Of a stretch of 64,000 nucleotides of DNA, positions 10,488 to 61,669 are shown piece by piece; the first letter of the stretch is position 1; each line of letters starts with the position of its first letter. This DNA is from an uncultured virus (IMG/VR IMGVR_UViG_3300035661_004061) (taxonomy: Duplodnaviria > Heunggongvirae > Uroviricota > Caudoviricetes), in IMG/VR virus record IMGVR_UViG_3300035661_004061; one strand, written 5' to 3'. Made by a program: the position numbers and the translations under genes. The notes beneath the pieces are model-generated. The model saw only the letters and a program-made list of their open reading frames with translations. It searched no databases and had not been told where the DNA came from.

Positions 10488-10514
10488 TTTAGTTTTAATA
10501 AATTTTACCGATAT
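10488..10514 (+). promoter_or_regulatory. Sigma-28 (FliA) promoter of flgM
   Basis: TTTAGTTT-N11-ACCGATAT versus consensus TAAAGTTT-N11-GCCGATAA, 32 nt upstream of the flgM start. Confidence 0.75.
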
Positions 10515-10546
10515 AGATCAAATTAAGAAAATTAAGGAATAAAAAA

Positions 10547-10771
10547 ATGATAAATTTAAACTATAATAATATTAATCTTCAAAATACTTATAGTTCATCA
10601 AATACAAAAGATACTAAAATAGATACAATGAAAATTAATGAAACTATCAAAAACGAAGAAATAAAACCAGAAACAAAAGTTGAACGTATTAAAAGAGAAA
10701 TCGAATCTGAAACTTATAAATTAGATATAAATAAAACAGCAAATAAAATGTTAGAGTCGTTAATTAAATAA
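10547..10771 (+). CDS. flgM: Anti-sigma-28 factor FlgM
   Basis: 74 aa; C-terminal KVERIKREIESETYKLDINKTANKML matches the FlgM sigma-binding region; sigma-28 promoter upstream. Confidence 0.85.
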   Translation: MINLNYNNINLQNTYSSSNTKDTKIDTMKINETIKNEEIKPETKVERIKREIESETYKLDINKTANKMLESLIK

Positions 10772-10773
10772 TA

Positions 10774-11268
10774 TTAAATATATTGATTTAAATCAACTTC
10801 TTTATATTTAATTTCTGTATACTTCTTTTCATAAAATATAGCACCCAACATATATTCTTTTTTATCATTAAATGAAATATTTAATTTTTCAATAATTTCT
10901 ATTAAATATTTTAATAATTCAAAATTTAAATCATCAGGCATTATGAAAGAATAATTATTTTCAGTATATTCTAATGTTTTAAATTTGATATTTGTATCAA
11001 ATAATTTATTATATATATAATTCAAAATAATAATATTAGAAGTTTTGTTGTAATATTTCATTTCTTCAAATGTAAATGTAAAAGTATAATCAATTTCTTT
11101 GTGAGTTCTAATAAAAGAATTTATTATAACACCATATAATTCATTATTTATTTTTATATATTCTGAATTATTGTTTTGTTTTAATAAATTTTGAGTTATT
11201 TTCATATCGGAAAATATTTTATTACCATTTTTATTTTTATATGTAACATTAAATATTTTTGTATTCAT
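10774..11268 (-). CDS. Hypothetical protein
   Basis: 164-aa ORF with AAGGA RBS. Confidence 0.55.
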   Translation of the reverse strand: MNTKIFNVTYKNKNGNKIFSDMKITQNLLKQNNNSEYIKINNELYGVIINSFIRTHKEIDYTFTFTFEEMKYYNKTSNIIILNYIYNKLFDTNIKFKTLEYTENNYSFIMPDDLNFELLKYLIEIIEKLNISFNDKKEYMLGAIFYEKKYTEIKYKEVDLNQYI

Positions 11269-11313
11269 TTATCGTATCCTTTTGTTGTTTTATTAAACTA
11301 TTTTATGAATTAA

Positions 11314-12087
11314 TTAATTAAAAACAATATTATTATCAATTTCTTCAAATTCTGGAATATTTTTATGAATAAATTCTATTTTCTTTATTTTTAATAAATG
11401 TTTTTTCTTTTTTTGAAGTTCTATCAATTCTACTTTGTCAGTTTTTAAACTTTCAATTCTACTTTTATAAATATTATTAAAATGTTCTTGAGACATTAAA
11501 TCTGAATTTTCTTCAATAAACTTAATAGATTTTTCAACTTCTTCAATCCATTCATCGGCTTCCAATTTCGTCATGTCTTCTATATGATTTTCTATTGTTT
11601 CTTTATAATATTCATAAAAATATTCCCTTGCTGATATTACAAAAAATGGAGGAACTTCTTGTATTCGTATTTCATCATTTATTACCAAATTAACATCCAT
11701 TTTGTGTGGAAATGCAAAAGCATATAAAGGTTTCTTTTTATTAGAATAAAAATCAATAAATGTTTGTCCATCGTTATTATCAGTTTCGTCTGGTTTTTCG
11801 TCTATTTCATGTGCATTATTATATGTCCCAAATTCTAAATTTACATTGTATATACTTAGTAATATATCTTTTGTTTTTTTTAAATCATATCTTATTTTTC
11901 CACTATGAAAAGAATAGTATTTTCCTCTTTCTTCATTTTTATAATTTTCTGTATTTATTTCATATTTTAATAATTTAGCTAAATTTCGAATTGGAAATTG
12001 AGCATATGACCATTGATCATGTAATGCTAATGTTTGTTTTTTATCTTCATGTTTAAAATCAATAAATACTTGGTGTCTTTGTCCCAT
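11314..12087 (-). CDS. Conserved-looking hypothetical protein (MGQRHQ..HDQW..DNNDG motifs)
   Basis: 257-aa ORF with RBS and distinctive polar motifs. Confidence 0.6.
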   Translation of the reverse strand: MGQRHQVFIDFKHEDKKQTLALHDQWSYAQFPIRNLAKLLKYEINTENYKNEERGKYYSFHSGKIRYDLKKTKDILLSIYNVNLEFGTYNNAHEIDEKPDETDNNDGQTFIDFYSNKKKPLYAFAFPHKMDVNLVINDEIRIQEVPPFFVISAREYFYEYYKETIENHIEDMTKLEADEWIEEVEKSIKFIEENSDLMSQEHFNNIYKSRIESLKTDKVELIELQKKKKHLLKIKKIEFIHKNIPEFEEIDNNIVFN

Positions 12088-12151
12088 TGATATTTCCTTT
12101 TAATATTTTTAACATTATAATAAAAATGTTGAAATAAAAACATTAAAAGAA

Positions 12152-12179
12152 AATATTAAAACCCGAAAGTTTTAATATT
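12152..12179 (-). terminator. Rho-independent terminator after the ter pair
   Basis: 11-bp stem aatattaaaac / gttttaatatt, loop TTTCGG on the minus strand, followed by a T-rich tract. Confidence 0.65.
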
Positions 12180-12185
12180 AATAAA

Positions 12186-12791
12186 TTATAGGAAGTTTAT
12201 AGCTGTTTTTTGAGTTTCTTCCAAACGTCTATCAGTTAAAGGTTCTCCAATAACTTTAAATTTCCAACCGTCAATTTCTTTTACCGCTACACCAAGAATC
12301 ATTGAAACTTTATTTTGAAATAAAGGTTCATTAGCTACTTTAAATGTTGCTAAAATTTCAGTTGGTACATTTTTTGCACCTGTATAAACCCGAAGATTTG
12401 CATAAGGTAATTCACCAAAATTTTGACCACTGAAACTATGAAGAACAACAGCAATATATTTGATTTCACTTGAAATTTTTTCAAGGTCAGCCACAATAAC
12501 CTCATTATCACTATCATCTGCTTGTGTATCACCTGAACGGTCATCACCTGTATGATAAATAGATCCATCTCTTGATTTTGTGTGTCCAAAATATACTTTG
12601 TCCACAAAATTTTTATTACTGTCATATAAAATAACGCTAGCGTCTAGATCTACTGATTCTTTAGAACCACCAAAACCGAACATACCTTTTTTTTGAATTT
12701 GTCCCCAGTTTACACCAAAACAAAGATTTTTCAATCCTTTAGAAGCACTTTTACTTAAATTGATTGTTCCGCCTTTAGATAATTGAATCAT
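12186..12791 (-). CDS. terZ: TerD-family stress protein, TerZ-like
   Basis: LSKGGTINLSK, GVNWG..KKGMFGFGG..VDLDAS, HTGDDRSGD..DNEVI. Confidence 0.8.
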   Translation of the reverse strand: MIQLSKGGTINLSKSASKGLKNLCFGVNWGQIQKKGMFGFGGSKESVDLDASVILYDSNKNFVDKVYFGHTKSRDGSIYHTGDDRSGDTQADDSDNEVIVADLEKISSEIKYIAVVLHSFSGQNFGELPYANLRVYTGAKNVPTEILATFKVANEPLFQNKVSMILGVAVKEIDGWKFKVIGEPLTDRRLEETQKTAINFL

Positions 12792-12846
12792 TTTTTTAAT
12801 CCTTTAATTTTTATTATTTTGATTGATTGTTTGTTTAGAATAAATA

Positions 12847-13443
12847 TTACGCCAAAAGGTGAGCAGCGTTATATTCACGAACAAATTCAGCAAGACCAGA
12901 TTTAAAACCAGCACCTATCGCTTTAAATTTCCATTCTCCATTATTTCTATACAATGAACCAAATTGAAGTGCTGTTTCAGTAGAAAAATCTTCACTAAGG
13001 TCATATTTAGCAATTTCAACACCAGTTTCTTCATTATAAATTTTAATATAAGCATTTGAAACCATACCAAAATTTTGATTTCTTGCTTCTGCACTATCAA
13101 TTGTTACAATAATCGAAATATTTTCAATTCGACTTTCAACATTTGTAAGATCTACTTTAATTGATTCATCATCTCCTTCACCTGAACCTGAACGGTTATC
13201 ACCAAAATGTATAATTGATTCATTACCATTTTTTAAATTACCATAAAAAACGAAATCTTTTTCTGTTTTCAAACTGAAAGATTCTCCATCTTTTTCAAGA
13301 CAAAATAAACTTACGTCTAGGTCAAAAGTACCATTTGAATCAAAACGATTTACATCCCATCCAAGTCCTAGTCTAATTTTAGACATTCCTGGTGCTTCTT
13401 TATTTAAATTGATGTTTCCACCTTTAGATAAGATAATAGCCAT
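12847..13443 (-). CDS. terD: TerD/TerE-family stress protein
   Basis: LSKGGNINLNK, GLGWD, FDLDVS, GDNRSGSGEGDDE, YDLSEDFSTETA, GEWKFKAIG. Confidence 0.9.
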   Translation of the reverse strand: MAIILSKGGNINLNKEAPGMSKIRLGLGWDVNRFDSNGTFDLDVSLFCLEKDGESFSLKTEKDFVFYGNLKNGNESIIHFGDNRSGSGEGDDESIKVDLTNVESRIENISIIVTIDSAEARNQNFGMVSNAYIKIYNEETGVEIAKYDLSEDFSTETALQFGSLYRNNGEWKFKAIGAGFKSGLAEFVREYNAAHLLA

Positions 13444-13746
13444 TTTTAAAATCCTTTAAATTTTATTTTAGAACAGTTATTTTAGTAAAAAAAACTTTAT
13501 ATGTCAAATATATTTTATATTAGCAAAAAAAATTAAGAAAATATTAATGTTATGCTTTATTACAAATTTTTAACTTTATTTACAAATTTATTAAAAATTT
13601 TTGACAAAAAAGTTTTTTTTATATAATGTTACACTATGACTATTTATTTTCTAACTTAAAATATTCATAATAATCTTATAAAACTTTTATAAATAGGAGA
13701 AAAAATATGACTTTACAAAAAAACTTCCTGAAAAATAGGAGGAAAA

Positions 13747-14406: not shown

Positions 14407-14736
14407 GCATTTCTTTTCTTTCTTTTCTTTTTTATATCTTTTATATAGAAATAATTTGACTTTCTTTGTAAAGTAATAATTATTTCTACAATAAACGGAT
14501 ATTAATTTAATAAAAAGGATATAAATGAAACAAAAAGATATAATTATGCTAATGTTCAAATAAATTTTATATACGATTTCTATCGTAAATTTACTTCACA
14601 AACTCTTTTTCTTTATCATATAAAAATATAAATTTTAATTAACACACATTTTTATGAATTTCAATTGACTTTAATATAATATTTTGTGTAAAATAAACTT
14701 CTAAATAAAAATAAATTATTTAATTAAAGGATATAA

Positions 14737-16071: not shown

Positions 16072-16080
16072 GGAAAATAA

Positions 16081-17501: not shown

Positions 17502-17521
17502 TAAAAATGTAAGGAACTAAA

Positions 17522-18271: not shown

Positions 18272-18279
18272 AAACAAAT

Positions 18280-23951: not shown

Positions 23952-25670
23952 ATGATTATAGGAATAACTGGTCATGTAAATATAGAAAAAATTTTTAATT
24001 TAAGTTTTAAAGATTATGGGGAAATTTATAATAATGAATGTTTTGAAAATTTAATAATAGAAATTACTAATACATTAAAAAAAATTTCAAATCATTATAA
24101 TATAGAATTTTCAAAATTAATATTAGTATCTGGAATGGCGAGAGGAATTGATGAAATTTTTGCTGAAATAGCTGTTAGAAATGATTTAAAGTTGATTTTA
24201 TCTATACCTCATTCAATAGAAGCTCATAAAAATAAAAGAATTATAAGAGGAATCAGAGATCAAGCTGTAAATTATGACAAATATTTAAATTATAAAAATA
24301 CAATAAAAATAAATGAAATTAAAAAAAATTATGGTGGTGAAACTTATTTATATGCTAATTTTGCAAGAAATAAAAATATAATAGATGAAAGTGAGATAGT
24401 TATAAGTTTCAAAGCTTATGAAAGTGCTGGAACAAATGATGCTATTGTTGCAGCTAAAAAAACAAACAAATATTTAGGAAATGTTAGTGAAATAAACAAA
24501 GAAGATTTTTCTTTTAATAATTTTAATTATATTTCAAGAGAAATAATAAATCAAAAAAAAATACAGATTGAAGAAGAAAACAAATCAAAAAGAAATTTTG
24601 AATATAATATTAAAAGTATAGATGACAATGTAGACGAATATTCAAAATATTCAAAAATAATGATTATTCAAGGTTGTAATTCTTTAGGAAAAATGGGTGC
24701 TGGAATCGCTGATTATTTAAAAAATAAATTTCCAAAACAAGCTAATGAATATTTTAATTATTACAAAGAAAATGGATTACTTGTGGGTGATGTTGTTTTT
24801 ACAGCTGAAAAATCGAATTTATATTTTGGAAATATAATTTCTCAAGAAAAAATAGGGAAAGATAAACAATATATAGAATATCGAGGTTTTTATGATGGAT
24901 TGATAAAAGTTAAAGAGTTTTGTGAAAATAATAATATAAATATTATAAAAACACCATTAATAGGAACTGGATTAGCAGGTGGCGATTGGGGTGTTATTGA
25001 ATATTTATATAAAGAAGTATTTAAAAATTCTAATATTTTAATTGAATTTTATGAAATAAACGAAAAACATTTAAACTCTTGTTTGCTGAAAATTGAAGAA
25101 AGAAATTTATTAAGAAAATCATTTTCAAAAAAAGACTTTCCAGAAAATTATAATTTTGATAATTTAAAATTTTTAAATAATTCAAATATTAAAATTAAAA
25201 TTGATAATTTTAAAAAAGAAAAACAAAAAGAAAATTTAAATATAATTTCAAATTCAGTTATAGATACAAAATTAAATAAATATAAAATAAAAATAACTAA
25301 TTTAGGGAAAAATGATAAATATATTTATATTGGAAGACCTTCTTTATGGCAAAATCCATTTCCTACAAAATCAAGTAAATTTTCCCCAAATGTATATCCA
25401 CTTGAGGAAAGCTTGAAAAAATACCAAGAAGAAACATTATCTAAGTTAAAAGTTAAAAATTTTGTAAAATTATTATTAGAAAATAATGAAATAACATTAT
25501 CTTGTTTTTGTATAGAAAAAACGATAACAATAAATAATTATAAAATAAATGAAACACCAAAATGTCATGGTGAATTATTAGCTGAAAAAATATTTGAAGC
25601 ATTAAAGTTAGAATTAACGCAAATCAACGAAAATCAATTAAATAATAATGAAAACAATATTAATATTTAA
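23952..25670 (+). CDS. Three-domain fusion: YspA-like SLOG + Macro + DUF4326
   Basis: IGITGH..SGMARGID..ARNKNIID..SAGT (SLOG); QGCNSLGKMGAGIA..PLIGTGLAGGDW (Macro); YIGRPSLWQNPF..LSCFC..CHGELL (DUF4326). Confidence 0.82.
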   Translation: MIIGITGHVNIEKIFNLSFKDYGEIYNNECFENLIIEITNTLKKISNHYNIEFSKLILVSGMARGIDEIFAEIAVRNDLKLILSIPHSIEAHKNKRIIRGIRDQAVNYDKYLNYKNTIKINEIKKNYGGETYLYANFARNKNIIDESEIVISFKAYESAGTNDAIVAAKKTNKYLGNVSEINKEDFSFNNFNYISREIINQKKIQIEEENKSKRNFEYNIKSIDDNVDEYSKYSKIMIIQGCNSLGKMGAGIADYLKNKFPKQANEYFNYYKENGLLVGDVVFTAEKSNLYFGNIISQEKIGKDKQYIEYRGFYDGLIKVKEFCENNNINIIKTPLIGTGLAGGDWGVIEYLYKEVFKNSNILIEFYEINEKHLNSCLLKIEERNLLRKSFSKKDFPENYNFDNLKFLNNSNIKIKIDNFKKEKQKENLNIISNSVIDTKLNKYKIKITNLGKNDKYIYIGRPSLWQNPFPTKSSKFSPNVYPLEESLKKYQEETLSKLKVKNFVKLLLENNEITLSCFCIEKTITINNYKINETPKCHGELLAEKIFEALKLELTQINENQLNNNENNINI

Positions 25671-25715
25671 ATAGTTCTTTTAATTTTTTAAAATAAAAAA
25701 TAAAAATGGAGAATT

Positions 25716-26675
25716 ATGCAAATTTTAAAAATTTTTAAAACATTAATATTGTTTTCGATCATTTATTTTACTATCGATATTGGACGATATATATTTTATC
25801 CAAATCTTTCAAAATTAGAATCAAGTCATCTTAAATATACTTCTTTTATGAAATATAGAATAAATGAATCAAAAGAAAAAGGTGAAAACTTAAATATTCA
25901 ACAAGAATGGGTACAATTAGAAAAAGTATCCCCTTATATTGTTAAAGGTTTATTAATAGCAGAAGATGATAAATTTTGGGATCATAATGGATTTGATGTA
26001 GACGGAATTGAAAATGCCTTAAAGAAAAATCTTAAAAATGGAAAATTATCAGCTGGTGGAAGTACAATTTCTCAACAATTAATTAAAAATTTATTGTTAG
26101 AACCTTCTAAAAATCCTTCAAGAAAAATCAAAGAGGCTATTTTAACTTGGAGAATGGAAAAAACATTACCCAAAAATAGAATATTAGAATTGTATTTAAA
26201 TTCAGCTGAATGGGGAAATGGTGTTTTTGGTATTCAAGCCGCTTCACATTATTATTTTAATAAGGATGCAGAATATTTAACAGCAAAAGAATCTTCTAAA
26301 TTATTGGCAGTATTACCTAATCCATTAATATATAATGTTAATGGAACACAAAAATATGTATTAAAAAGATCTAAACATATTTATAAAATATTAAAATATA
26401 GAGGAATTATAGATGAATATAACAATATGATGATTGAAAGAAATAAAGGTTTGAAATTTAAAGAAAATGAAATAGAATCAAATAATGAAAATTATTTAAA
26501 AGATTTTAAAGAAAATAATTATTTAAATAATGAAGAAATAAATGGTGATAAAGATAAAGAAGTTAATTCAAATGAAATCATAAATAGTGAAGAAGTGAAA
26601 GATATATCTGTTGAAAATAGTGATAATAAAAATATTTCAGATAATATATCTTTTCATACAAATGACCAATTTTAA
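25716..26675 (+). CDS. mtgA: Monofunctional peptidoglycan transglycosylase (GT51)
   Basis: AEDDKFWDHNGFD, GGSTISQQLIKNL, RKIKE, RILELYLNSAEWG; N-terminal TM helix. Confidence 0.92.
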   Translation: MQILKIFKTLILFSIIYFTIDIGRYIFYPNLSKLESSHLKYTSFMKYRINESKEKGENLNIQQEWVQLEKVSPYIVKGLLIAEDDKFWDHNGFDVDGIENALKKNLKNGKLSAGGSTISQQLIKNLLLEPSKNPSRKIKEAILTWRMEKTLPKNRILELYLNSAEWGNGVFGIQAASHYYFNKDAEYLTAKESSKLLAVLPNPLIYNVNGTQKYVLKRSKHIYKILKYRGIIDEYNNMMIERNKGLKFKENEIESNNENYLKDFKENNYLNNEEINGDKDKEVNSNEIINSEEVKDISVENSDNKNISDNISFHTNDQF

Positions 26676-26678
26676 ATA

Positions 26679-27047
26679 TTAAACTTTTAAATTAAATAAC
26701 AAAGATACATGTTCCTTAAAATATTTTGCATTTTTAACAAAATCTTGACTAGGGTATTGTACAATTAAATTATCTGTTTTTTTATCGGTAACTTTAACCA
26801 TATAAATATCAGTTTCAGTATCTAATTTAAATTGTAAATTATTATTTATAACTGAATCTGTATTATTAATTTTATCTAATAAAGTATTCAATTCGTCCTT
26901 ATTTAAAGTTTTGGGTTGTGAATTATTATCAGAAATATTTTTAGCATAACTACTTATTGATTTTGAAGATTCTCCTATATTATATTCAACAGGAAATTGA
27001 ATATTATTATTTATATTGTTATTAATGATTTTATTTATAGTTTCCAT
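26679..27047 (-). CDS. flaG: Flagellar protein FlaG
   Basis: NLQFKLD..YMVKVTDKKTDNLIVQYPSQDF..LLFNLKV matches the FlaG C-terminus; same operon as fliD. Confidence 0.82.
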   Translation of the reverse strand: METINKIINNNINNNIQFPVEYNIGESSKSISSYAKNISDNNSQPKTLNKDELNTLLDKINNTDSVINNNLQFKLDTETDIYMVKVTDKKTDNLIVQYPSQDFVKNAKYFKEHVSLLFNLKV

Positions 27048-27050
27048 TTT

Positions 27051-27452
27051 TTACTCCTTAATTTTTATCAATAATTCTTTTAGATTATTTAATAAACTTA
27101 ATTCATTTTCTAAAATAAATTTTAATAAAATTTTATTTAAAAAAGTATAAAAATCAATAATATCTTTATGATTAATATCTTCAATATTAACTGAATTTAT
27201 CATAATACTATTAATTTCTAACAATTTACTTATATTTCTATGTTTTAATTCTATTTCATTATTTTGGTGATTTAATATAATTTGATCAATTTTTCTTATA
27301 TATAAAACAAATAAAGTATTCAAAAATTCTTCATTAGATAAAGTATTAACAATACTATTATATGAATTTTTATTTTCTATTACATTATTATAATTATTTA
27401 TAAAATTATGTTCATAATTATTAGTTAATATTTGAAAAATATTTGCTGTCAT
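27051..27452 (-). CDS. fliS: Divergent FliS-like flagellin export chaperone
   Basis: Follows fliD by 2 nt; 133 aa helical; EIELKHRNISKLLEINSIMINSV..IIDFYTFLNKIL pattern. Confidence 0.6.
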   Translation of the reverse strand: MTANIFQILTNNYEHNFINNYNNVIENKNSYNSIVNTLSNEEFLNTLFVLYIRKIDQIILNHQNNEIELKHRNISKLLEINSIMINSVNIEDINHKDIIDFYTFLNKILLKFILENELSLLNNLKELLIKIKE

Positions 27453-27454
27453 TT

Positions 27455-28789
27455 TTATGCCTTTGTACTATAAGATGATTGAATTAAACTATTTAATGCT
27501 GAAAAATTATTATTCATATTTGAAATAATACTATCATAAGCATTGAATTGATTTGTCATAATGTCAAATTTAGTATTTATATAATCTTGGGTACTAATTT
27601 TATTCAATTCCATTCTATTATATTCTGAATTCAAATTATCTGTTTGTAATTTCAAAAATCCACTATTTGAATTTGTAATATTATCCATTGTGGTTTTTAA
27701 TTTTGTAAAAACTCCATTATCTCCTTGAAATAAAATCTTAATATCAGAAAAATTAGAATTATTAAATTTTTTTTCATCTAATGATAAAACTCCACTTTTA
27801 TCTAAACTTAATCCATTTTGAAATAAATTATTATTACTTATAACATTTGTTAAAGAATTATTGATATTTCTTAAAATAGAATTAAAAGTGGAAGAATCGT
27901 TTTGAAAAACACCTGACGAAGTATTTGTTCCACCATTTTGTGTTATATCTTTTGTATAATTTGATAAATTATTATATTGATCAATAAATAATTTATATTG
28001 AGTTTTAATATTATCAGTATTTTGTTCTATTTTCACATCAGTTGTCGAATTTAAATCTTTTAATGTAACTTCTACACCTGTTTTAATATCAGAAAAAGTA
28101 TTACTACTTCTTTCCATATTAATATTATTAAATTTAAATTTAGCATTTTGAGCATGTTGAACATTATTTAAATTTAATTCATTTAAAATATTTGTATCCC
28201 CATTTACTGTTATTGTATTGTCTATTCCTGTATTAGAACTATTTAAAACTAATGAAAATGAACTACCAGACGTATTTAATATATTAGAAGTCATACCTTT
28301 TGAAATTAAAGTATTATTAATTTGATCGTTTAAATCAGATAATTTCATATTATTAGTTATTATAAAATCATAATTATTTCCTTTAAATTGCAAAGTTAAA
28401 TTTTCATTTGAACCAGTTGAATTTATAATTGCATCTTTCGAAGTATATTGTTTGCTTTGATATGTATCATTAGCTGCTAATTGAGAAGTCGATATTGTAA
28501 AATTTTGAATATCCACTCCGTCAGCTGCTTTTACATCTATACTTGAATTAGAAAGAGATACATTTCTTTGAAGATACAACGTTTCATTACTTAAACTATT
28601 TATTGTTGTCGAAAGATCGTTAATCATTCCTGTATATGTAGAAAAAGCTGTTGTTTTTGCTTGATTTTTCGCTATCGACTTATCAATGGGATCTATTTGA
28701 ATAGTTTGTGCATTTGTTTTTAATTGTGTAATAGTATCGCTATTCAATACATTACTTCCCATTCCCATAACACTTAAACTTGAAGACAT
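27455..28789 (-). CDS. fliD: Flagellar filament cap protein FliD
   Basis: SSLSVMGMGSNVLNSDTITQL N-terminus, QLAANDTYQS, AQNAKFKFNN..RSSNTFSDIKTGVEVTL, QFNAYDSIISNMN C-terminal coil. Confidence 0.92.
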   Translation of the reverse strand: MSSSLSVMGMGSNVLNSDTITQLKTNAQTIQIDPIDKSIAKNQAKTTAFSTYTGMINDLSTTINSLSNETLYLQRNVSLSNSSIDVKAADGVDIQNFTISTSQLAANDTYQSKQYTSKDAIINSTGSNENLTLQFKGNNYDFIITNNMKLSDLNDQINNTLISKGMTSNILNTSGSSFSLVLNSSNTGIDNTITVNGDTNILNELNLNNVQHAQNAKFKFNNINMERSSNTFSDIKTGVEVTLKDLNSTTDVKIEQNTDNIKTQYKLFIDQYNNLSNYTKDITQNGGTNTSSGVFQNDSSTFNSILRNINNSLTNVISNNNLFQNGLSLDKSGVLSLDEKKFNNSNFSDIKILFQGDNGVFTKLKTTMDNITNSNSGFLKLQTDNLNSEYNRMELNKISTQDYINTKFDIMTNQFNAYDSIISNMNNNFSALNSLIQSSYSTKA

Positions 28790-28821
28790 ATTATTTCCTT
28801 AAATAAATTTCAATTTAATCT

Positions 28822-28848
28822 ATATCGGATGTTTTTAATTTAAGTTTA
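28822..28848 (-). promoter_or_regulatory. Sigma-28 (FliA) promoter of fliD-fliS-flaG
   Basis: Minus strand TAAACTTA-N11-TCCGATAT, 32 nt upstream of the fliD ATG. Confidence 0.8.
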
Positions 28849-28929
28849 GTTTAAATTTGAATTTTAATAAAATTTTAAGTTAAATGATGATATACTTCTA
28901 TTTAATATATTATATAAAAGGAAACACAA

Positions 28930-29370
28930 ATGAGTATTTATGAAAAAATAAAAGAAACACAAATGAAATCTAGAAAAAGTAAAGATACTTTTGTTTCAAA
29001 TGCTTTAGGTGGGATTTTAAACGAAGTTAAACCAATTGGAAATGAAATTAAAGAAATTACAGACGATTTAATTGTTAAAACATTAAATAAATATATAAAA
29101 GGTGTTAATACAAATATTGAATTAGCAGAAAAGTCTGGAAGAACAGAATTAATTGATGGTTTTAAAAATGAAAAAAAGATATATGAAATGTTTTTACCTA
29201 AACAAATGAAAGATTCAGAAATTAAAGTAGTTATCGAAACTATTATTGGAAATAGAGAAAAAAATGGGAAAATGATGGGTGAAATTATGGGAAAATTTAA
29301 TAAAGAATATACAGGTCAATTCAATCCTTCTACTTTATCTACAATTGTTAAAGAAATATTGGGTTCTTAA
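28930..29370 (+). CDS. GatB/YqeY domain protein
   Basis: MKSRK..ITDDLIVKTL..GRTEL..EKKIYEMFLPKQM..MGEIMG. Confidence 0.88.
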   Translation: MSIYEKIKETQMKSRKSKDTFVSNALGGILNEVKPIGNEIKEITDDLIVKTLNKYIKGVNTNIELAEKSGRTELIDGFKNEKKIYEMFLPKQMKDSEIKVVIETIIGNREKNGKMMGEIMGKFNKEYTGQFNPSTLSTIVKEILGS

Positions 29371-29382
29371 TCTACAAAATTT

Positions 29383-29423
29383 TTTAAAATAACTTGAATT
29401 TTATTAATTCAAGTTATTTTAAA
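29383..29423. terminator. Bidirectional terminator-like hairpin
   Basis: 18-bp perfect stem tttaaaataacttgaatt / aattcaagttattttaaa between convergent genes. Confidence 0.6.
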
Positions 29424-29489
29424 TTTTAATTTATTTTCAATTAAAATTAAATCATCTATTAATTTTTAATATTGAATTATATCAATATA

Positions 29490-30302
29490 TTAATTTTCCA
29501 TATTTAATTCGATTTTTGTATCATTACTTAATTTTTTAATTTCTTCTAGTTCTTTTGTTTTTTTGAACTTTCCTTCAAATGCTTCTTTTCTTAAATATTG
29601 TTTTTCAGGATTAAATTGTCTATCATAATTTTTTAATACTATTAACGGTAAATAATTAAAAATTTCATTTAAACTTTTAATTCGTATAATCCTTTTACCA
29701 GTATATAAATGTTGATTATGTTTATAATCCAAAACAAAAGCATGAGCATATGGATTTTTTATAACAGTATTTTCAACATTATGTGCACCGTCATCTATTA
29801 ATATAGCATTTGTATAATCCAATTCCCATTTATATGAAGTTGTATGTTTTCTACTTATATAATCTTTAAAATATTTTTGTATATGTTTACTTTTAGATTC
29901 AACATTTTTATCATAAGTAGCTGTTACAATTGATAAATTATCTAATAATTTATTTTTTTCTAATGTTTTTAAAAATGGAATTGCATCCTTTTTTGGTAAT
30001 ATTTCATCATATACGTTAGGATTATCTAAAAATACTTTTCCGTTAGGTTGCTTATCGAACCAATAAAAATCAACAACATCTTTCTTCTTCCAATTTGTTC
30101 CATTATTTTTATTAATATTTTCAACCCAAGGACTCATCAAATCTGCTAATACTTCATCATAATCACAATATATAGTTACTGTTTTAATCAATGATTTTAA
30201 ATATTCTAAATCTATATGATGTGTTTTCATCAATTCCTTAATTTCATTTTTAAATTCGGAATTATTTATATGTTCTTTTAAATTGTTTATATCAAATTTC
30301 AT
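29490..30302 (-). CDS. 5'(3')-deoxyribonucleotidase (NT5C, HAD family)
   Basis: IYCDYDEVLADL, IVTA, ILIDDGAHN, HNQ. Confidence 0.82.
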   Translation of the reverse strand: MKFDINNLKEHINNSEFKNEIKELMKTHHIDLEYLKSLIKTVTIYCDYDEVLADLMSPWVENINKNNGTNWKKKDVVDFYWFDKQPNGKVFLDNPNVYDEILPKKDAIPFLKTLEKNKLLDNLSIVTATYDKNVESKSKHIQKYFKDYISRKHTTSYKWELDYTNAILIDDGAHNVENTVIKNPYAHAFVLDYKHNQHLYTGKRIIRIKSLNEIFNYLPLIVLKNYDRQFNPEKQYLRKEAFEGKFKKTKELEEIKKLSNDTKIELNMEN

Positions 30303-30563
30303 TTTTAACCTTAATAATAAATATTTTAAAGTTATTATAAAAAAATAATTAAAAATATATTCTAAAAATAATAATTTTAAATATATTTTTAATTATTTTA
30401 TAAATTGTGATAAATTATAAAAATCAATTATGAAAATTTCAAATCTTCATTAATAGATTTTTTAATTACTAAAAATTCACATTCATATTTAAAAATATCT
30501 ATTTTTGTTTATAAGATATTTTTAAAGTTTCAAATAAAATTAACTTTCATTATATGTATTGTT

Positions 30564-31211
30564 TTAATCCATAAATCCTATTAAAAATAATGTTTTCTTT
30601 TCAGATTTATTATAAAATTTTACTTTTTCTTCTTCCAATTTATTTTTTAATTCTTCAATTTTTTCTGAAAATTTATTAAATTTTTCATTATCGGTTTCAT
30701 TTAAAATAAAATTTGAACTATCACAAATAGGACAATTTAAAAGTTCAAATCTTTGTTTTAATAATCTATTTATATTATTTTCATTATTTAAATCTTTTAA
30801 AATTTCTTCACTGTTTTCATTTAAATCTAATTCATTATATTTTTGAATCATTTTTCCACTATATACTTCTTTATCTATAGAACTTTTACAATTTGAACAT
30901 CCCTTTGTTGAACTTTTTTGTTCATTAAATCTATTAATTATATTTAATGGAAATTCCAACATTTCTATTTTCATTTTTTGAATTTTACTATTAATTTCTT
31001 CGTATTTTTCACTACCTTCAAAAACATCCGTAGACCCTAAAAATTTAACAATGAAAGCTTTTGTATCAGAAACCATATCATTTAAATATTCTTTTGCATC
31101 TTCTTCTGAGGGGAAAGTCATACTTTTTAAATTTAATTGACTACTTTTACCTGTTTCATTTTCGAAACCATTTTGATCGATTTCTTCATTTTTTATAATA
31201 TATTTTAACAC
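30564..31211 (-). CDS. Hypothetical protein with two CxxC pairs
   Basis: GCSNCKS and CPICDS flanked by coiled coils; GTG start. Confidence 0.6.
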   Translation of the reverse strand: MLKYIIKNEEIDQNGFENETGKSSQLNLKSMTFPSEEDAKEYLNDMVSDTKAFIVKFLGSTDVFEGSEKYEEINSKIQKMKIEMLEFPLNIINRFNEQKSSTKGCSNCKSSIDKEVYSGKMIQKYNELDLNENSEEILKDLNNENNINRLLKQRFELLNCPICDSSNFILNETDNEKFNKFSEKIEELKNKLEEEKVKFYNKSEKKTLFLIGFMD

Positions 31212-31290
31212 TTTAACCCCTTATTTATATTTATGAAATTATTTTAAAAAAATATAAAAATTTTTATTAAAATAATATTGAAATACTTAT

Positions 31291-31719
31291 TTATAACATT
31301 AAAAAATCATCAAAATAAATTTCTTTAACTTGCCCCTTTGATAATTTTAAATTTATTTTATTAATTAATTCTATTTTGAAATTTTTCAAATTATTAGTAT
31401 TTGATAATTCAGAAGATTTTTTAGAAGTTATAATTTTTAAAACAATATCTCTTATTAAAGTTTTTTTTTCTTCTAATTCTTCTTTCATATCTTGATTATC
31501 ATATAAAAATGAAAATTCTATTTTTAAATATTTATGTTTTGTATCATTATTTATCAAATTAACAGTAAATGATTCTATATGAAAAATATTATTATTTTCA
31601 GAATTTTCATTAAAAAACTTTTTTCTTTGTATTTTGAAGAATCTAAATCAAAAATTGTTTTATTTTTATAATTTTTTAAAGAATAAATAGAAATATTTTT
31701 TGTTTTTTTTCTTATTCAT
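31291..31719 (-). pseudogene. fliL: FliL-like flagellar protein, frameshifted and lacking a TM anchor
   Basis: IESFTVNL..KYLKIEF..IRDIVLKIITSKKSSEL..LINKINLKL..VKEIYFDDF; that frame is open only from about 31647; the ATG with AAGGA at 31719 is out of frame, with shifts near A8 and T6 runs. Confidence 0.7.
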
Positions 31720-31795
31720 TATTTTTATTTCCTTGAAATATTTAAAAAATTATAAAAATAAAAACAAGATATATGAAATATCTTATTTTAAAAAT

Positions 31796-43797: not shown

Positions 43798-44271
43798 ATG
43801 GATAATAAAAATTATTTTGTTTCAAAAAATCCAATTCATAATGCTTTAAGATTAAAAGAAATAGAAGGGGTAATTGATGAACTTCTTTTAAAAGAATTTT
43901 ATAGATTCAATAGACATAATATTGTTTCAACAATGGCTTTTGTAGAATCTAATGAACCATTAGACTTTCTTAAAATCAAACAAAATATAAGAATATTAGA
44001 TGAAATTTCTGAAATAAATAAAAATTTTTATTTTATCATTTTTTCATACACAACTATTGACAAAGCATATAAAGCATCACAAAATTTAATTTCAAAATTC
44101 CATAATGTAATTATTCATATAGTGTTAGAAGAATTCAAAAAAAGTGATAAAAAACATACAGACATTATAAGAAGAATTAATTCTATAATGAATGAAACTA
44201 AAAAATCAAATGAATCATTAATATGTGATGAAAGTATTCATGAAATGCATCAATGTTCATTTCATAAATAA
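43798..44271 (+). CDS. Possible degenerate GGDEF-like domain protein
   Basis: IRILDEISEINKNFYFIIFSYTTIDKAYKASQNL follows GGDEF-fold spacing but lacks GG(D/E)EF. Confidence 0.4.
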   Translation: MDNKNYFVSKNPIHNALRLKEIEGVIDELLLKEFYRFNRHNIVSTMAFVESNEPLDFLKIKQNIRILDEISEINKNFYFIIFSYTTIDKAYKASQNLISKFHNVIIHIVLEEFKKSDKKHTDIIRRINSIMNETKKSNESLICDESIHEMHQCSFHK

Positions 44272-46602: not shown

Positions 46603-47001
46603 ATGAAAACATTAAAAGAACTTTTTGATGAAATGAAACAAACAAATGTATTAAACAAATATTTTAATAATGAAAATTTTTTTGAACTTAATGAAAAAGA
46701 AATTATTTCAACAATTAAAATTAAAAATTTAATAAATAATCCATTAAAATTATATAATAAAAATGGATTTGAATTATTAGATACAATTATAGACTTTGAA
46801 AAAAGTTTAATAATAACACCATTTTTTATTTCTTATCTATTTAATTATGATTATTCTTCTAAAAATGGAGAATTTATATGGGAAAATATAGAAAATATAA
46901 GATATGAATTTATGAAAAAGAATGAAAATATACAAAATTATTCATTTCAACTTGAATTTAATGACCACAAATTAAATTTATATTATAAACAAATCAATTA
47001 A
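46603..47001 (+). CDS. Hypothetical protein
   Basis: 132-aa ORF with AGGA RBS. Confidence 0.55.
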   Translation: MKTLKELFDEMKQTNVLNKYFNNENFFELNEKEIISTIKIKNLINNPLKLYNKNGFELLDTIIDFEKSLIITPFFISYLFNYDYSSKNGEFIWENIENIRYEFMKKNENIQNYSFQLEFNDHKLNLYYKQIN

Positions 47002-47563
47002 TATTTTCATTCTTTTTTAATTTATCGAAATAATAATTAAAATCTTCCATAAATTTATTTATTTCTGAAATTTCTATATCTTCATGATTTTTCCTTACAT
47101 ATGTATAAAAATCAGAAATACAATTACCCAAACCTTGAATTCTTAAACTAGAAGAAGAACCCTTAATTCTATGAGTTAAATTTTTTAAATTTTCAATATT
47201 CAATACTTTAATATTATCTTCAATTTCAATTTTTTGATTTTCTATTTGCTCAATAAATTCACCTAAAAACTCTTTAACATCTTCAATAGACATATCTAAT
47301 TCTTTTAGACAGTAATCAAAATCAAAATCAGGATAAATTTTATGAGGTATTTGATTAACTTCATCTTTTTGTCTTTCTATTTTTTCTTGAAGTTTTTCTT
47401 TATCAATTTTTTCTTTTTTTTCTTTTTCTGTTTTTTTTAGTTTTTCAGCTTCTTTGATTTTTTTATCAAATTCATCATTTTTAGTGTTTTTAAAAACAAT
47501 AAAAGCAACTAAAAAAAACACTAATAATACAGTTATACCTAAAAATATTAAATTATTATCCAT
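46994..47563 (-). CDS. Membrane-anchored Hpt (histidine phosphotransfer) protein
   Basis: N-terminal TM helix; LTHRIKGSSSSL HxxKGSS motif. Confidence 0.8.
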   Translation of the reverse strand: MDNNLIFLGITVLLVFFLVAFIVFKNTKNDEFDKKIKEAEKLKKTEKEKKEKIDKEKLQEKIERQKDEVNQIPHKIYPDFDFDYCLKELDMSIEDVKEFLGEFIEQIENQKIEIEDNIKVLNIENLKNLTHRIKGSSSSLRIQGLGNCISDFYTYVRKNHEDIEISEINKFMEDFNYYFDKLKKNENIN

Positions 47564-52276: not shown

Positions 52277-52738
52277 TTAATTTTTTATATTGATTAAAAC
52301 TTCCATTTTATTAACTTTTATTTTTTTAATTTTGTATAATTTATAATAGTTTAATAATTTAGCAATCATTATTCTATGATTACCATCCATATTAAAAGCC
52401 TTGTTATCCATTCTAATTATTTTAACATCTTCATATTCATTATTTAAAACTTTATTAATTATTATTTTAAAATATTCTTCATCTCTTTTATTAAATAAAT
52501 GTTTAAATATTTCACCATATTCTAAATTATAAAATTTAGAATGAATTGAACATATGATGTTTTTTAATTTATAATCGTTATTTTTAAGCTTATTATTTTC
52601 TTTCTTTGATTTGTTTTTACATTTTTTTTTAGTCTTTTTTATTGCATATTTCAATGGATTATTCATTTTTTTATAAAAAATAGAAGGATTGTCTTTCAAT
52701 ATATTTAAGTATGTAAAATCTTCAATATTTGTTATCAT
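52277..52738 (-). CDS. ParB/Sulfiredoxin-like domain protein
   Basis: MDGNHRIMIAKLL motif. Confidence 0.5.
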   Translation of the reverse strand: MITNIEDFTYLNILKDNPSIFYKKMNNPLKYAIKKTKKKCKNKSKKENNKLKNNDYKLKNIICSIHSKFYNLEYGEIFKHLFNKRDEEYFKIIINKVLNNEYEDVKIIRMDNKAFNMDGNHRIMIAKLLNYYKLYKIKKIKVNKMEVLINIKN

Positions 52739-53025
52739 TAATCTTCTTTTTTGAATTTATATCCAAGATCTTTTAAATATTCTATTCCTTCAGAAGTCAC
52801 GAAATAATAATTCATACCAATAGATTCACCTTTTACAGCTAAATTTTTCAAAACTAAATCGTCCCATTCATTACATTGTGAAATTTGATAATAATTTCTA
52901 TAAGAATTTAATTTTGGTCTATAAACTTTATTAGGAATAGTATTTTTACCACTTTTACTATAAGAAATACCTAACGCATGTTTCATTTTATAAATTTGAG
53001 AATCGGAAATTTCAATAGTATTCAT
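52738..53025 (-). CDS. Hypothetical phage-type protein
   Basis: MKHALG..YRNYY..WDDLV..YFVTSEGIEYL; TAATG overlap with the next gene. Confidence 0.65.
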   Translation of the reverse strand: MNTIEISDSQIYKMKHALGISYSKSGKNTIPNKVYRPKLNSYRNYYQISQCNEWDDLVLKNLAVKGESIGMNYYFVTSEGIEYLKDLGYKFKKED

Positions 53026-57210: not shown

Positions 57211-57213
57211 TTA

Positions 57214-57744: not shown

Positions 57745-59239
57745 ACATTTAAATACAGATATATATTATTCTAAATTATTAGAAACTACAAATGATGAAG
57801 ATATTCTTTTGAAAGCTGGATATATTGATGAAAATTTTATTTTAAATGAAAAAGAAATAAATAAATTATATACACCTATAAATAAATTAAAAAAAATTAA
57901 ATCTTCTTCGCCAATAGTTTTGGTTTCAACAGGTGCGTTTAACCCAATTCATGAAGGTCATATAAAAATGATGGAATTAGCAGAAGAAAAATTAATTCAA
58001 GAAGGGTATGAAGTTATAGGAGGATATTTTTCATTTGCACATGATAGTTATGTTAAAACAAAAGTCTATAAAGATTATGAAATTTTAAAAAGATTTGGTA
58101 AAAGTATAGAAATTATATCAAATTCAAAATATTCTTTTTCTTTATTTTGTGCTGTCTGTATCGATTTTGATATAAATTTTACAAAAGTAATTAATTATTT
58201 TGAAAAATATTTACAAAAATATGTAAATAAAAATATTAAAGTATGTTATGTATACGGAAGTGATAATAAAAATTTTAGACATCTTTTTAATTGTAATGAT
58301 ACTTTATTATTTTGTTGTGTTTCAAGACCAAATTATCAATTAGAAAAAACATTTAAAAATGTTTTAAATGTTTATAAATATAGTTTAGAAAAATCTTCTA
58401 CCGAAATAAGAGAAAATTCAAAATTAAATATAGAAGAATCCAAAAATAATAAAATTCAAAAAATTTATTTAAAAGACGACGGATTTTACAGTTTATTGGA
58501 TTTAAAATTAAAAGATAATAATATATATTATGAAAATTTTAAAAATGATATGTATTTATTATTTAAAAATTATTTTAATGAAGTAGAAATCATTCATCAT
58601 AAATTTCAAAATTTAGAAAGTAACACAATATCATTAGATGAAATCGAAAATCGAAAATATAATTTAGAAATAACAAGGGTATTTGAATTAGATTTACATA
58701 ATAAATCTCCTAAATATATTTCTAATAGAATAAATACTAAAAATCTTACTAAACAAATAAATGAAATTAAAAATAATTATTATAACAATGAATTTTATTT
58801 ATATGATGACGATTCGGCTAGTGGTTTTACAATTTCTTCTATAATTAAAATTTTACAAAAAAATCAAATCAAAATAATTGATTGTAAATTTAATCAAAGT
58901 ATATCATTAAATGAAGATATATGTGATATCAGAGATTTTTTAATAGGTTCAAAGGGTTCTGGATTAACAATTAAACATAAAAATAAAAAATATAAATTAC
59001 CTTATATATTTCCATTTGTAAATTTGAATTATAGAAGTTCTATCGAATATGATAAAATGTTAGAATTTTCTAAAAACATAGTATTATTAAATATAAATTT
59101 TTATCAGAATTTTGATTATAAACTTTATGAAATAAATAAAAATCTATATTACTTTTTTCATAATTTAGGAATTAAAAAAGATATTTCAATGATTGATTTT
59201 CTTTTATATTTAAATACATATTATGAAACAAAAAATTAA
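57737..59239 (+). CDS. NMNAT-like nucleotidyltransferase fused to a PRTase-like domain
   Basis: TGAFNPIHEGH, GGYFSFAHDSYV, YVYGSD, KSSTEIR; C-terminal LYDDDSASGFTI PRPP-binding-like loop. Confidence 0.78.
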   Translation: MFKHLNTDIYYSKLLETTNDEDILLKAGYIDENFILNEKEINKLYTPINKLKKIKSSSPIVLVSTGAFNPIHEGHIKMMELAEEKLIQEGYEVIGGYFSFAHDSYVKTKVYKDYEILKRFGKSIEIISNSKYSFSLFCAVCIDFDINFTKVINYFEKYLQKYVNKNIKVCYVYGSDNKNFRHLFNCNDTLLFCCVSRPNYQLEKTFKNVLNVYKYSLEKSSTEIRENSKLNIEESKNNKIQKIYLKDDGFYSLLDLKLKDNNIYYENFKNDMYLLFKNYFNEVEIIHHKFQNLESNTISLDEIENRKYNLEITRVFELDLHNKSPKYISNRINTKNLTKQINEIKNNYYNNEFYLYDDDSASGFTISSIIKILQKNQIKIIDCKFNQSISLNEDICDIRDFLIGSKGSGLTIKHKNKKYKLPYIFPFVNLNYRSSIEYDKMLEFSKNIVLLNINFYQNFDYKLYEINKNLYYFFHNLGIKKDISMIDFLLYLNTYYETKN

Positions 59240-59302
59240 AAGCTAATATATTGTCTTTTATCGATGTTTAATATTTATAAAAGACAATATATTAGCTTTT
59301 AA
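59236..59302. terminator. 26-bp perfect inverted repeat closing the operon
   Basis: ttaaaagctaatatattgtcttttat - 15-nt loop - ataaaagacaatatattagcttttaa. Confidence 0.7.
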
Positions 59303-59386
59303 AATCAAATATATTAAATTTCGATATTGTTATTTTTCTTTATTTTTATATAATTTATATAAATTTCAAAATAAGGAAACAAATAT

Positions 59387-60064
59387 ATGAAAAATAAAAA
59401 TGTAGTGTTTTTTGATTTTGATAAAACAATAGTAAATATTGATTCATTTTTTGATTTTCTTAAATTTTCTTCAAATAAAGAAATATATTTATTTATATTT
59501 TATAATTTTCCTATATTATTAACTAAATTAATAGGAAAAAATTGGAGATTAAATTTTAAAAATAAACTTTGGGAATATTTTTATGATTTAAATAAAGAAG
59601 AAGTACAAAAATATTGTAATTATTATTTTGAAGAAAATATTGACAAAATATTGCATAAAAATTCAATAGAAACTCTAAAATTATTTAGTGAAAAAGATTT
59701 TGATATTTATATTATTAGTGCAACAGCTAATATATTAATTGAATCTTTTCGAGATATATTAAAAAAGAAATATAACATTAATGTAATAGCTAATGGAAGT
59801 GAATATTATTTTGATAAAAATAATGAAACAAAAATAAATTCTTTAAAAAATTCTGAAAATAAAATAAATATTAAAATTAAAACAAATCATTATGGTAAGA
59901 AAAAAGAAGAAATTATAAATAAAATTATTTTAAACAATGATTATACTTTTAGTTTTGCTTATGGAGATTCCAAAGGTGATAAATATATGTTAAAATGGTG
60001 TGATAAAGGTTATATTGGAAAAGATGTTATGAATAAAGCTATAATTGATATAAAAATTTTTTAA
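59387..60064 (+). CDS. HAD-IB family phosphatase
   Basis: FFDFDKTI, IISA, YGKKK, AYGDSKGDKYML. Confidence 0.9.
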   Translation: MKNKNVVFFDFDKTIVNIDSFFDFLKFSSNKEIYLFIFYNFPILLTKLIGKNWRLNFKNKLWEYFYDLNKEEVQKYCNYYFEENIDKILHKNSIETLKLFSEKDFDIYIISATANILIESFRDILKKKYNINVIANGSEYYFDKNNETKINSLKNSENKINIKIKTNHYGKKKEEIINKIILNNDYTFSFAYGDSKGDKYMLKWCDKGYIGKDVMNKAIIDIKIF

Positions 60065-60137
60065 TTATTCAAAATTTTATTGATATTGATTCTGTAAATG
60101 TCCTTAAATCAATAGATAAAAAGGATTTAAAATAGAA

Positions 60138-60260
60138 TTGAATAATATAAACGTTAAACAGATAGTATTTATTGTATCTTCTTTTATGATAGTTTTTTTA
60201 ATAGGTGTGGTAACAGTAGCGTTTTCAAATTATATAGTTGATTTAACATTTTCCATATGA
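60138..60260 (+). CDS. Possible 40-aa single-TM microprotein
   Basis: TTG start 12 nt after AAGGA; IVFIVSSFMIVFLIGVVTVAF hydrophobic stretch. Confidence 0.35.
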   Translation: MNNINVKQIVFIVSSFMIVFLIGVVTVAFSNYIVDLTFSI

Positions 60261-60307
60261 AATTAAAATAATATTTAGAAAATTTAAAAATCTATATGAA
60301 AATATTT

Positions 60308-61669
60308 TTAATTTTCTTCATTATTTTTTTTAATATAATATTGATTTCTTCCTTTTCTTTTTGCATAATATAAAGCTTCATCAGATTCTTTTAATAATTC
60401 TTCCTTTGAAATTACTCGATTATCTAAAATACTTATTCCTATACTTATAGTTATGATTTCATTGGTATCTGAAAATTCATGTTTAATTTTTAAATTTTTA
60501 ATCGATTTCAATAATTCTTCCGCAATTATTTTAACACCTTCTTCGTGAATATCTTCTAAAATTATTGAAAATTCTTCTCCTCCATAACGTGCTACAAAAT
60601 CATTAGGACGTTTGATTGTATTTTTTAAAGCTTTTGCAACCCGTATAAGTGTTTTATCACCTTCTGCATGACCATAATTATCATTATATAATTTAAAATG
60701 ATCTACATCTATCATCATGACAGCTAAATTATAAGAATGTCTTAAACTATCTTTATATAATTTTTCTAATTGTAAGTCAAAACAACGTCTATTAGAAATT
60801 TGTGTCAACCCGTCCAATAAAGATATTTTTTCTAATTCTTCACTTTTATCTCTTAATTGGTGTTCAATTTCTTTTTGTTTAGAAATATTAGTAATAACCC
60901 CTATTAATCCAGTTATTTCATTATTTTTATTGATAATAGACGATTTATGAAAAATAACATGATGATTTATTCCTTGAAAATCAGTAATATTTGTTTCATA
61001 AATTTGTTCTATATTGTTTTCTAATAACTCTTTATCACGAAGATAATATTCATTAGCTATTTCTTTTGTATTTAGATCAAAAACATTTTTTCCTATAATT
61101 TTTTTTTCATCTTCTCCAAAAAAATCTTGATAAGCTTTATTAAATCCTGTATAAACACCATTTTTATCCATATAAAATATAGGAACTGGTATAGAATTAA
61201 TTAAATATTTAAAAAATGTATGTTGTTTGTCATATTCATTTTCTAATTTTTCTTTAAGTTCGTTTTTACTTGAAGAAACTAAATCATTTAATTTTAATAA
61301 CATCGACTTTTCAGTTAATACTTTATTTCCAAATAATTTATCATCACTTATGTCTTCAATAATTTCATTAGACAAAACAATAATTACATAATTATCAAAA
61401 TATATTTTTTTGAACTTTCTATTTTTATTATTAATAGTAATAGTAATTTCATTAATATTTTTATCATTAAAAAAATTTTCAAAAATACCATAATTATCAA
61501 TCATTAAAAATTCAATTGTTTTAAATTTAGAAATATCTTCAATATTTAAATCATTATTATTAAAAAATTTTTGATTCATATAAACTATTTCTAAATTATT
61601 ATTTAAAATAATAGCTTCATTTTCAAAAACATTTATTAAATTATATAATTCTTTATTATGATGTTCCAT
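60308..61669 (-). CDS. PAS-domain diguanylate cyclase
   Basis: PAS (PIFYMDKNGVYTGFNKAY), DGLTQISNRR, DVDHFKLYNDNYGH, RPND I-site, RYGGEEF. Confidence 0.95.
   Translation of the reverse strand: MEHHNKELYNLINVFENEAIILNNNLEIVYMNQKFFNNNDLNIEDISKFKTIEFLMIDNYGIFENFFNDKNINEITITINNKNRKFKKIYFDNYVIIVLSNEIIEDISDDKLFGNKVLTEKSMLLKLNDLVSSSKNELKEKLENEYDKQHTFFKYLINSIPVPIFYMDKNGVYTGFNKAYQDFFGEDEKKIIGKNVFDLNTKEIANEYYLRDKELLENNIEQIYETNITDFQGINHHVIFHKSSIINKNNEITGLIGVITNISKQKEIEHQLRDKSEELEKISLLDGLTQISNRRCFDLQLEKLYKDSLRHSYNLAVMMIDVDHFKLYNDNYGHAEGDKTLIRVAKALKNTIKRPNDFVARYGGEEFSIILEDIHEEGVKIIAEELLKSIKNLKIKHEFSDTNEIITISIGISILDNRVISKEELLKESDEALYYAKRKGRNQYYIKKNNEEN

Follow-up and report, generated by a model that had tools for sequence, protein, structure and literature searches.

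The uncultured-virus record IMGVR_UViG_3300035661_004061 carries a small set of flagellar genes, two of whose transcription units lie behind promoters that, at the sequence level, are indistinguishable from the sigma-28 (FliA) promoters of Campylobacterota hosts. The record is a linear contig fragment of 122,894 nucleotides (nt) at 20% GC, here C1; its first 64 kb form the window, i.e., the whole stretch of DNA first annotated, and coordinates without prefix refer to it. The flagellar set consists of flgM, fliD-fliS-flaG, a fliL that is truncated, and fapA, the last of these beyond the window; all four loci are of the late or accessory type. An initial annotation made from the letters of the window alone had placed flgM, fliD-fliS-flaG, and fliL at separate loci, and Pfam found them there; fapA, with a third candidate sigma-28 site, lay outside the window and was hence missed. 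The explanation that we favor, at a little under even confidence, is that the element genes are fired by the FliA of the host during filament building, limiting and capping the host filament.

10488..10524, plus strand: flgM promoter, with −35 TTTAGTTT (10488-10495), N11, −10 ACCGATAT (10507-10514), then AGATCAAATT (weight matrix)
10547..10771, plus strand: FlgM anti-sigma-28 factor, 74 amino acids (aa) (Pfam PF04316, E 1.5e-7, above cut-off)
28812..28848, minus strand: fliD-fliS-flaG promoter, with −35 TAAACTTA (28848-28841), N11, −10 TCCGATAT (28829-28822), then AGATTAAATT (weight matrix)
27455..28789, minus strand: FliD filament cap, 444 aa, of the short Campylobacterota type (PF02465 and PF07195; best NCBIfam match PRK12765)
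27051..27452, minus strand: FliS-fold protein, 133 aa, open frame (PF02561, 28.4 bits, E 2e-6, barely above cut-off)
26679..27047, minus strand: FlaG, 122 aa, final gene of the operon (PF03646, E 4e-16)
31291..31719, minus strand: truncated fliL (Pfam FliL at 31291-31557; C-terminal domain open from about 31620)
C1:117249-119060, minus strand: fapA, 603 aa, outside the window (PF20250)

The annotation had pointed to matching flgM and fliD promoters with an N11 spacer, and this likeness goes well beyond chance. Each promoter lies 32 nt 5′ of the ATG, and the 17-mer common to both occurs at only those two places in 122.9 kb; none of 100 shuffles yielded two matches to it, even at 2 mismatches. 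Among the 14 CCGATA sites on the contig, the only intergenic ones are those of these two promoters. Intergenic DNA is 13% GC, and CCG or CGG occurs in it six times in 10.9 kb, two of these occurrences being the flgM and fliD −10 boxes. In viral_contigs the 17-mer matched twice, both times within unrelated coding sequences, which we took as chance.

In the hosts, 59 of 60 flaG/flgM upstream regions have a T(A/T)(A/T)A-N17-CGAT site. A weight matrix was made from 58 distinct host flaG/flgM sites, which have a median score of 18.2, and 245,732 contig positions were scored with it. In this contig-wide scan, the flgM site ranked first (score 19.8) and the fliD site third (17.3). The fourth rank went to a candidate fapA site (15.9) that starts 124 nt upstream, within the end of the preceding gene (region to C1:119184); it is less certain, as just 2 of the 25 fapA loci in hosts score over 12, but fapA with this site probably also belongs to the module. 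The next best upstream score among 119 genes was 7.6, and at 20% GC a 75-nt upstream window would reach scores like those of the element sites by chance with a probability of 1e-5 to 7e-5. The second-ranked site (52854-52882, minus strand, 17.8) was left out of account, as it lies in coding sequence, 144 nt before the open reading frame (ORF) 52277-52738, with 0.2 chance hits expected on the contig. The flgM and fliD sites combine a CGAT −10, a T(A/T)(A/T)A −35, and fixed spacing at about the 35 to 70 nt from the start that is typical of sigma-28; CGATTT is given as the sigma-28 consensus in Campylobacter jejuni (PMC3656092). The AGATyAAATT shared by the element promoters is absent from the host sites inspected, and one of the two promoters may have arisen by duplication of the other. 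Taken as sequence matches, these data strongly support that flgM and fliD-fliS-flaG are wired to sigma-28. Of the earlier proposal that the element senses flagellar gene expression, the promoter match stands, while a wider motility reprogramming system lacks support of this strength.

Conservation was compared with 17 to 30 host orthologues per protein, with the NrdA of the contig as baseline (59% identity element-host, 82% host-host; 377 of 497 conserved columns). FliD, FlgM, and FapA retain 74 to 83% of their conserved columns and NrdA 76%. FliD has its N- and C-terminal domains within one open frame, is 32% identical to host copies (host-host, 34%; 28/38 columns), and has its closest relative at 37% identity; FapA stands at 26% versus 30% (35/42 columns). 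FlgM is full length for its class (74 aa versus a host median of 67), shows 30% identity to hosts and 29% between hosts, and retains 4/5 conserved columns with a conserved G changed to E, a comparison biased in its favor because the hosts were chosen for likeness to the element FlgM. By sequence criteria its FliA-binding C-terminal domain is present with conserved residues; it scores below the TIGR03824 cut-off and weakly matches 9WSF chain B (E 0.047). A word search and annotated phages and plasmids gave no FlgM homologue, at low sensitivity for 74 aa. FlgM and FliD look to be under selection.

The remaining genes have fared differently. FlaG, last in the element operon and first in many hosts, is 21% identical to host copies (host-host, 34%; 7/15 columns). 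FliS is only 23% identical (host-host, 54%) and keeps 6/29 conserved columns, whereas the lowest host keeps 90%; its predicted structure nevertheless resembles FliS (template modeling [TM] score 0.72; predicted TM 0.76), and nothing in the PDB matched its sequence at E 10. When neutral AT-biased decay was simulated with substitutions only, a stop-free FliS at 50% identity was obtained in 0 of 300 runs and a stop-free FlgM at 35% in 3 of 300. With its fold retained and its frame still open where simulated neutral decay closed it, FliS looks altered under selection, not dead. fliL, counted by the initial annotation as a working member, has three in-frame stops after a likely start ATG near 31719 and lacks the membrane anchor (host FliL, about 178 aa with anchor; identity 30% versus 45% host-host; 15/34 columns); it is probably a pseudogene or an assembly error. 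The state of the genes thus differs across the set: FlgM and FliD show signs of selection, erosion marks FliS and FlaG, and fliL is broken.

This division bears on two alternatives. That the genes and promoters are decaying leftovers of a capture, with no present role, is quite improbable: the broken fliL and the eroded FliS and FlaG agree with it, and the promoters may just have been carried in with the genes, the same site standing before fliD in 15 of 17 Sulfurimonadaceae loci (see below), but open frames and GC-containing −10 boxes are intact despite full amelioration and deep divergence. Alternatively, extra copies could aid assembly of the filament in a host burdened by a large element, by providing more cap and FapA, with FlgM and FlaG only preserving stoichiometry. 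The positive factors FliD and FapA are indeed among the best conserved, and host-like promoters would time the genes like the host copies; we nonetheless consider this improbable, as the main export and torque factors, FliS and FliL, are the eroded ones and no flagellin was found to boost.

In the favored explanation, the genes and promoter matches in place are the observed starting point. As the promoters match host sigma-28 sites, host FliA likely turns the genes on; it would read them after hook completion, alongside the host late genes. From known biology, element FlgM would then bind FliA and lower flagellin transcription as a second feedback brake, FlaG would compete with FliS-flagellin at FlhA, and FliD would cap the shortened filament, while the altered FliS would no longer be an ordinary chaperone for host flagellin. 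The best-kept genes together with the altered chaperone point to a limited, re-capped filament. FlaG is described as blocking FliS-flagellin docking at FlhA and limiting filament length (PMC11536152), and in C. jejuni a small RNA that cut FlgM by 30% went with more flagellin and longer filaments (PMC11187230).

Several points weigh against this explanation. In the same C. jejuni study, flgM deletion left mean filament length unchanged (PMC11187230). A full-length FlgM may be exported like that of the host and brake weakly, FlaG keeps only 7/15 conserved columns, and a pure throttle has no obvious need of a cap, FapA, or FliL. The source sites of the matrix were predicted, not mapped, with the first T and CGAT invariant by construction, and the contig is a linear fragment, so that flagellin or fliA could sit elsewhere. 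The throttling or re-capping direction given by the initial annotation is still an inference, as is the purpose that it suggested (phage exclusion, energy saving, or mating), and no result bears on purpose.

The absence of basal-body and flagellin genes reported for the window was confirmed and extends to the whole contig: no basal-body gene was found on it, a six-frame search of all 122.9 kb gave neither flagellin nor FliA, and 602 host flagellar-locus ORFs compared with the contig by tblastn matched only the known flagellar genes and one MATE transporter. One further 152-aa ORF (C1:68702-69160, minus strand) has a weak FliG C-terminal match (E 0.0085, below cut-off) and was unmatched by the host flagellar ORFs. 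The sole sigma factor of the contig is the following.

5862..6359, minus strand: sigma factor of extracytoplasmic function (ECF) size, 165 aa, with regions 2 and 4 only (Pfam, NCBIfam)

It scores 25 bits against the TIGR02479 cut-off of 189.6, a test that five of five host genomes pass, and FliA is about 230 aa long. The earlier suggestion that the element supplies its own fliA is thus rejected for the contig, the rest of the element being unseen.

The main alternative, which we consider unlikely, is that this unseen part encodes a divergent flagellin, served by FliD and the altered FliS and tuned by FlgM and FlaG, so that the host filament is replaced or re-capped, as happens with pBSSB1 and FRphi. 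An open FliS that keeps its fold but no longer has 23 of the 29 residues conserved in hosts is what co-evolution with a new partner would give, and a conserved cap suits an own filament; altered FliS plus cap are in fact better explained this way than by host filament limitation. In addition, only a fragment is at hand, contigs of sisters being as long as 275 kb, and three further AT-biased FliDs cluster with that of the element (support 96). Against a swap, flagellin was not found on the 122.9 kb, host flagellin scanned against viral_contigs found no relative (a method that detects close relatives only), and FlgM would silence a sigma-28-driven element flagellin equally with that of the host. 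The FliD cluster, moreover, is possibly compositional attraction.

Limitation and capping by host FliA require a host that has this factor. FliA and FlgM are reported lost in all Arcobacter, Sulfurovum is described as without flagella, and Nitratiruptor as without FlgM (PMC9321776). All six Arcobacteraceae fliD loci scored 5.5 or less with the sigma-28 matrix, a count that omits L242, titled Arcobacter, as its NrdA and FliD group elsewhere. With FliA and FlgM lost there and such low scores at the fliD loci, Arcobacter is probably not the host and was rejected as such, in line with the doubt already voiced in the initial annotation. The 15 Sulfurimonadaceae loci mentioned above have a site scoring at least 13.6 directly before fliD, as on the element. 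To judge from these sequence comparisons, some Campylobacterales lineage that has FliA, other than Arcobacter, is the likely host.

In a quick LG+C20 tree, the element FliD joins the three AT-biased FliDs (P0003, P0079, and P0189), and the group falls outside Arcobacteraceae and Sulfurimonadaceae, while a fourth AT-biased FliD, P0135, falls inside Sulfurimonadaceae; the grouping may be compositional attraction. NrdA did not pin down the host: it is 50 to 58% identical to all Campylobacterota alike, and in its tree, one row of which (L017) is probably the wrong ORF, the element branch is 1.47 long versus a median of 0.04. The GC content at third codon positions of the flagellar genes, 6 to 12%, matches that of the rest of the contig, which, with the 37% identity of the closest FliD relative, speaks for an ancient capture. 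The likely source, of genes and promoters together, is a FliA-bearing Campylobacterales host. The FliDs P0003, P0079, P0189, and P0135 share the AT-type composition of the element FliD and are candidate element-borne caps, P0135 from a separate capture. The element FliD, P0003, and P0079 found no relative when scanned against viral_contigs, and the FliD matches in phage records were four unannotated Listeria fragments.

The annotation had included cyclic di-GMP and Hpt genes in the same circuit.

60308..61669, minus strand: PAS-GGDEF diguanylate cyclase with GGEEF and RxxD sites (Pfam, NCBIfam, sequence)
43798..44271, plus strand: stand-alone GGDEF-fold protein without catalytic motif, of a Campylobacterota family (TM 0.71 to GGDEF, features 0.97)
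46994..47563, minus strand: Hpt-like protein with N-terminal hydrophobic segment and HxxKGS motif (PF01627 E 2e-4, below cut-off)

All three are present, the degenerate GGDEF protein of the annotation most likely being the product of the 43798-44271 ORF as judged from its modeled fold; Pfam missed it, and blastp found no match between it and the cyclase. Their membership in the circuit was not supported. Upstream scores were 1.0 for the cyclase, 2.8 for Hpt, −1.5 for the degenerate GGDEF gene, and −0.4 for fliL, i.e., no sigma-28 site. With neither site nor linkage to the flagellar loci, a sigma-28 link of the cyclase and Hpt genes is rejected, and in the favored explanation they are separate cargo. 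The cyclase looks intact from its GGEEF motif and may affect motility independently.

The DNA that carries these genes is classed by IMG/VR as a linear virus record. No capsid, terminase, portal, or tail gene was found among 68 ORFs compared with PHROGs and 115 with Pfam, on what is a fragment, and the 122,894 nt hold no terminal repeats and no tRNA, rRNA, or Rfam match. Replication genes comprise two fused DnaE, a divergent DnaB, RecA, MutS, ligase, and NrdA. The DnaB family has 11 metagenome loci, on parent contigs of up to 275 kb and 19 to 27% GC, and no match in 301 Campylobacteria genomes or in a GTDB scan. Nine sister loci near dnaB (137 ORFs) carry Rep3 (in L011 and L012), type IV pilus genes, SecY-SecG, RodA, gyrase, and Cas genes. 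The contig itself has 43-bp iteron-like repeats at C1:101919-102073, next to a 317-aa ORF with no Pfam hit and no significant blastp match to the sister Rep3. On gene content, we consider the contig likely to be one piece of a giant plasmid-like element that has Campylobacterota-type genes and belongs to an undescribed family.

Could the contig come from a reduced and scrambled chromosome, that of a Campylobacterota-like cell whose full flagellar set lies elsewhere? It does encode many cellular proteins (ClpXP, AspRS, Amt, MtgA, and RlpA, within an envelope and housekeeping set), and sister loci have SecY, SecG, RodA, gyrase, and six tRNAs. Opposed to this are the absence of ribosomal proteins among the 115 contig and 137 sister ORFs and of tRNA and rRNA on the contig, the 49 ORFs, of 115, that Pfam assigns to no family, a sister secY outside any ribosomal operon, Rep3 in sisters and iteron-like repeats on the contig, and a DnaB family foreign to the genomes searched. 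A chromosomal origin is accordingly very improbable; the contig is not ordinary host chromosome, and no complete flagellar set occurs on it.

A broader possibility, which we regard as doubtful, is that giant AT-rich plasmids of an undescribed family, resident in vent and mat Campylobacterota, have kept a sigma-28-timed regulon of their own (FlgM, FliD, a re-purposed FliS, FlaG, and FapA) since an ancient capture, re-capping or rebuilding the host filament. No flagellar gene occurs near dnaB in the nine sister loci, so that conservation across the family is unsupported, a point against the favored explanation; no site scoring over 11 stands before 146 sister ORFs. Words of window 24000-33000 recur at 21 to 67% in seven runs from five studies of mats, sediment, and vents, a survey of word sharing only that excludes a possible source run and one small share; no RNA run is listed among them. 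Campylobacterota dominate many vent and mat communities, where motility determines access to sulfide and oxygen. Were the regulon kept in this way, the surface met by flagellotropic phages and mating partners would change.

Remodeling of the flagellum by mobile elements is already known; the route via flgM and fliD-fliS-flaG differs. The linear plasmid pBSSB1 of Salmonella Typhi (fljB z66, fljA) is likewise a plasmid with flagellar late genes acting on the host filament, but it brings a flagellin together with a repressor dedicated to host fliC, and the available text of PMC6860452 does not mention fliD, fliS, flgM, or fliA. The element, by contrast, has no flagellin that we could find, and its cargo is an anti-sigma factor, a cap, a chaperone fold, a length antagonist, and FapA. 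The FRphi prophage of Enterobacter also remodels the host flagellum, by RNA-guided repression through TldR and replacement of flagellin by that of a temperate phage; FliD, FlgM, and FliS go unmentioned in the available text of PMC13418256. On the contig, which looks plasmid-like, there was no TldR or flagellin hit. The chromosomal FliA-FlgM class III regulon of Campylobacterota (flaG-fliD-fliS, flgM) has the same genes, promoter form, and similar spacing, whereas the element is at 20% GC, lacks fliA and core flagellar genes, has flgM alone, and has an altered FliS. None of the host loci compared (sets of 20 and 31) shares its gene order, fliD-fliS-flaG, and on the element no FliT-like gene follows. 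Flagellar chromids, that of Marinovum algicola among them, carry whole flagellar clusters, in contrast to the late and accessory genes, scattered, of the element. They too hold flagellar genes off the main chromosome (reference list of PMC8628078).

A literature search at the level of listings, mostly of openly accessible papers, turned up neither a plasmid or phage with flgM and fliD-fliS-flaG under host sigma-28 promoters nor a description of this element family. If the limitation and capping explanation is true, flagellar remodeling would proceed via anti-sigma factor, cap, and export gate rather than a flagellin repressor: known mobile elements swap flagellin and repress the host copy, and this one would instead listen to the flagellar sigma factor of the host. 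The contig also points to a family of giant elements in Campylobacterota that has so far gone undescribed.

Some further features of the element and its sisters are recorded here. Rep3, PilB/PilC-like genes, and a prepilin peptidase occur in sisters L011, L012, L007, L008, and L010; OmpA, RodA, SecY, and SecG are grouped at L013:4652-9205, not in a ribosomal operon; and L005 (872-1551, 13318-20677) has six tRNAs, plus Csy3 and Cas1, near dnaB. On the contig, two TerD genes adjoin at window 12186-13443, and MtgA, RlpA, NlpC/P60, and SppA are dispersed along its length. A 632-codon open frame with about seven 69-bp tandem repeats runs off the contig start (window 1-1900, minus strand), and 45-bp tandem repeats occupy the other end (C1:122567-122881). 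The ECF-sized sigma gene is one of three at window 5354-6687, minus strand; the other two encode a 101-aa secreted-looking protein and a 166-aa protein that contains a hydrophobic segment and may be its anti-sigma factor.

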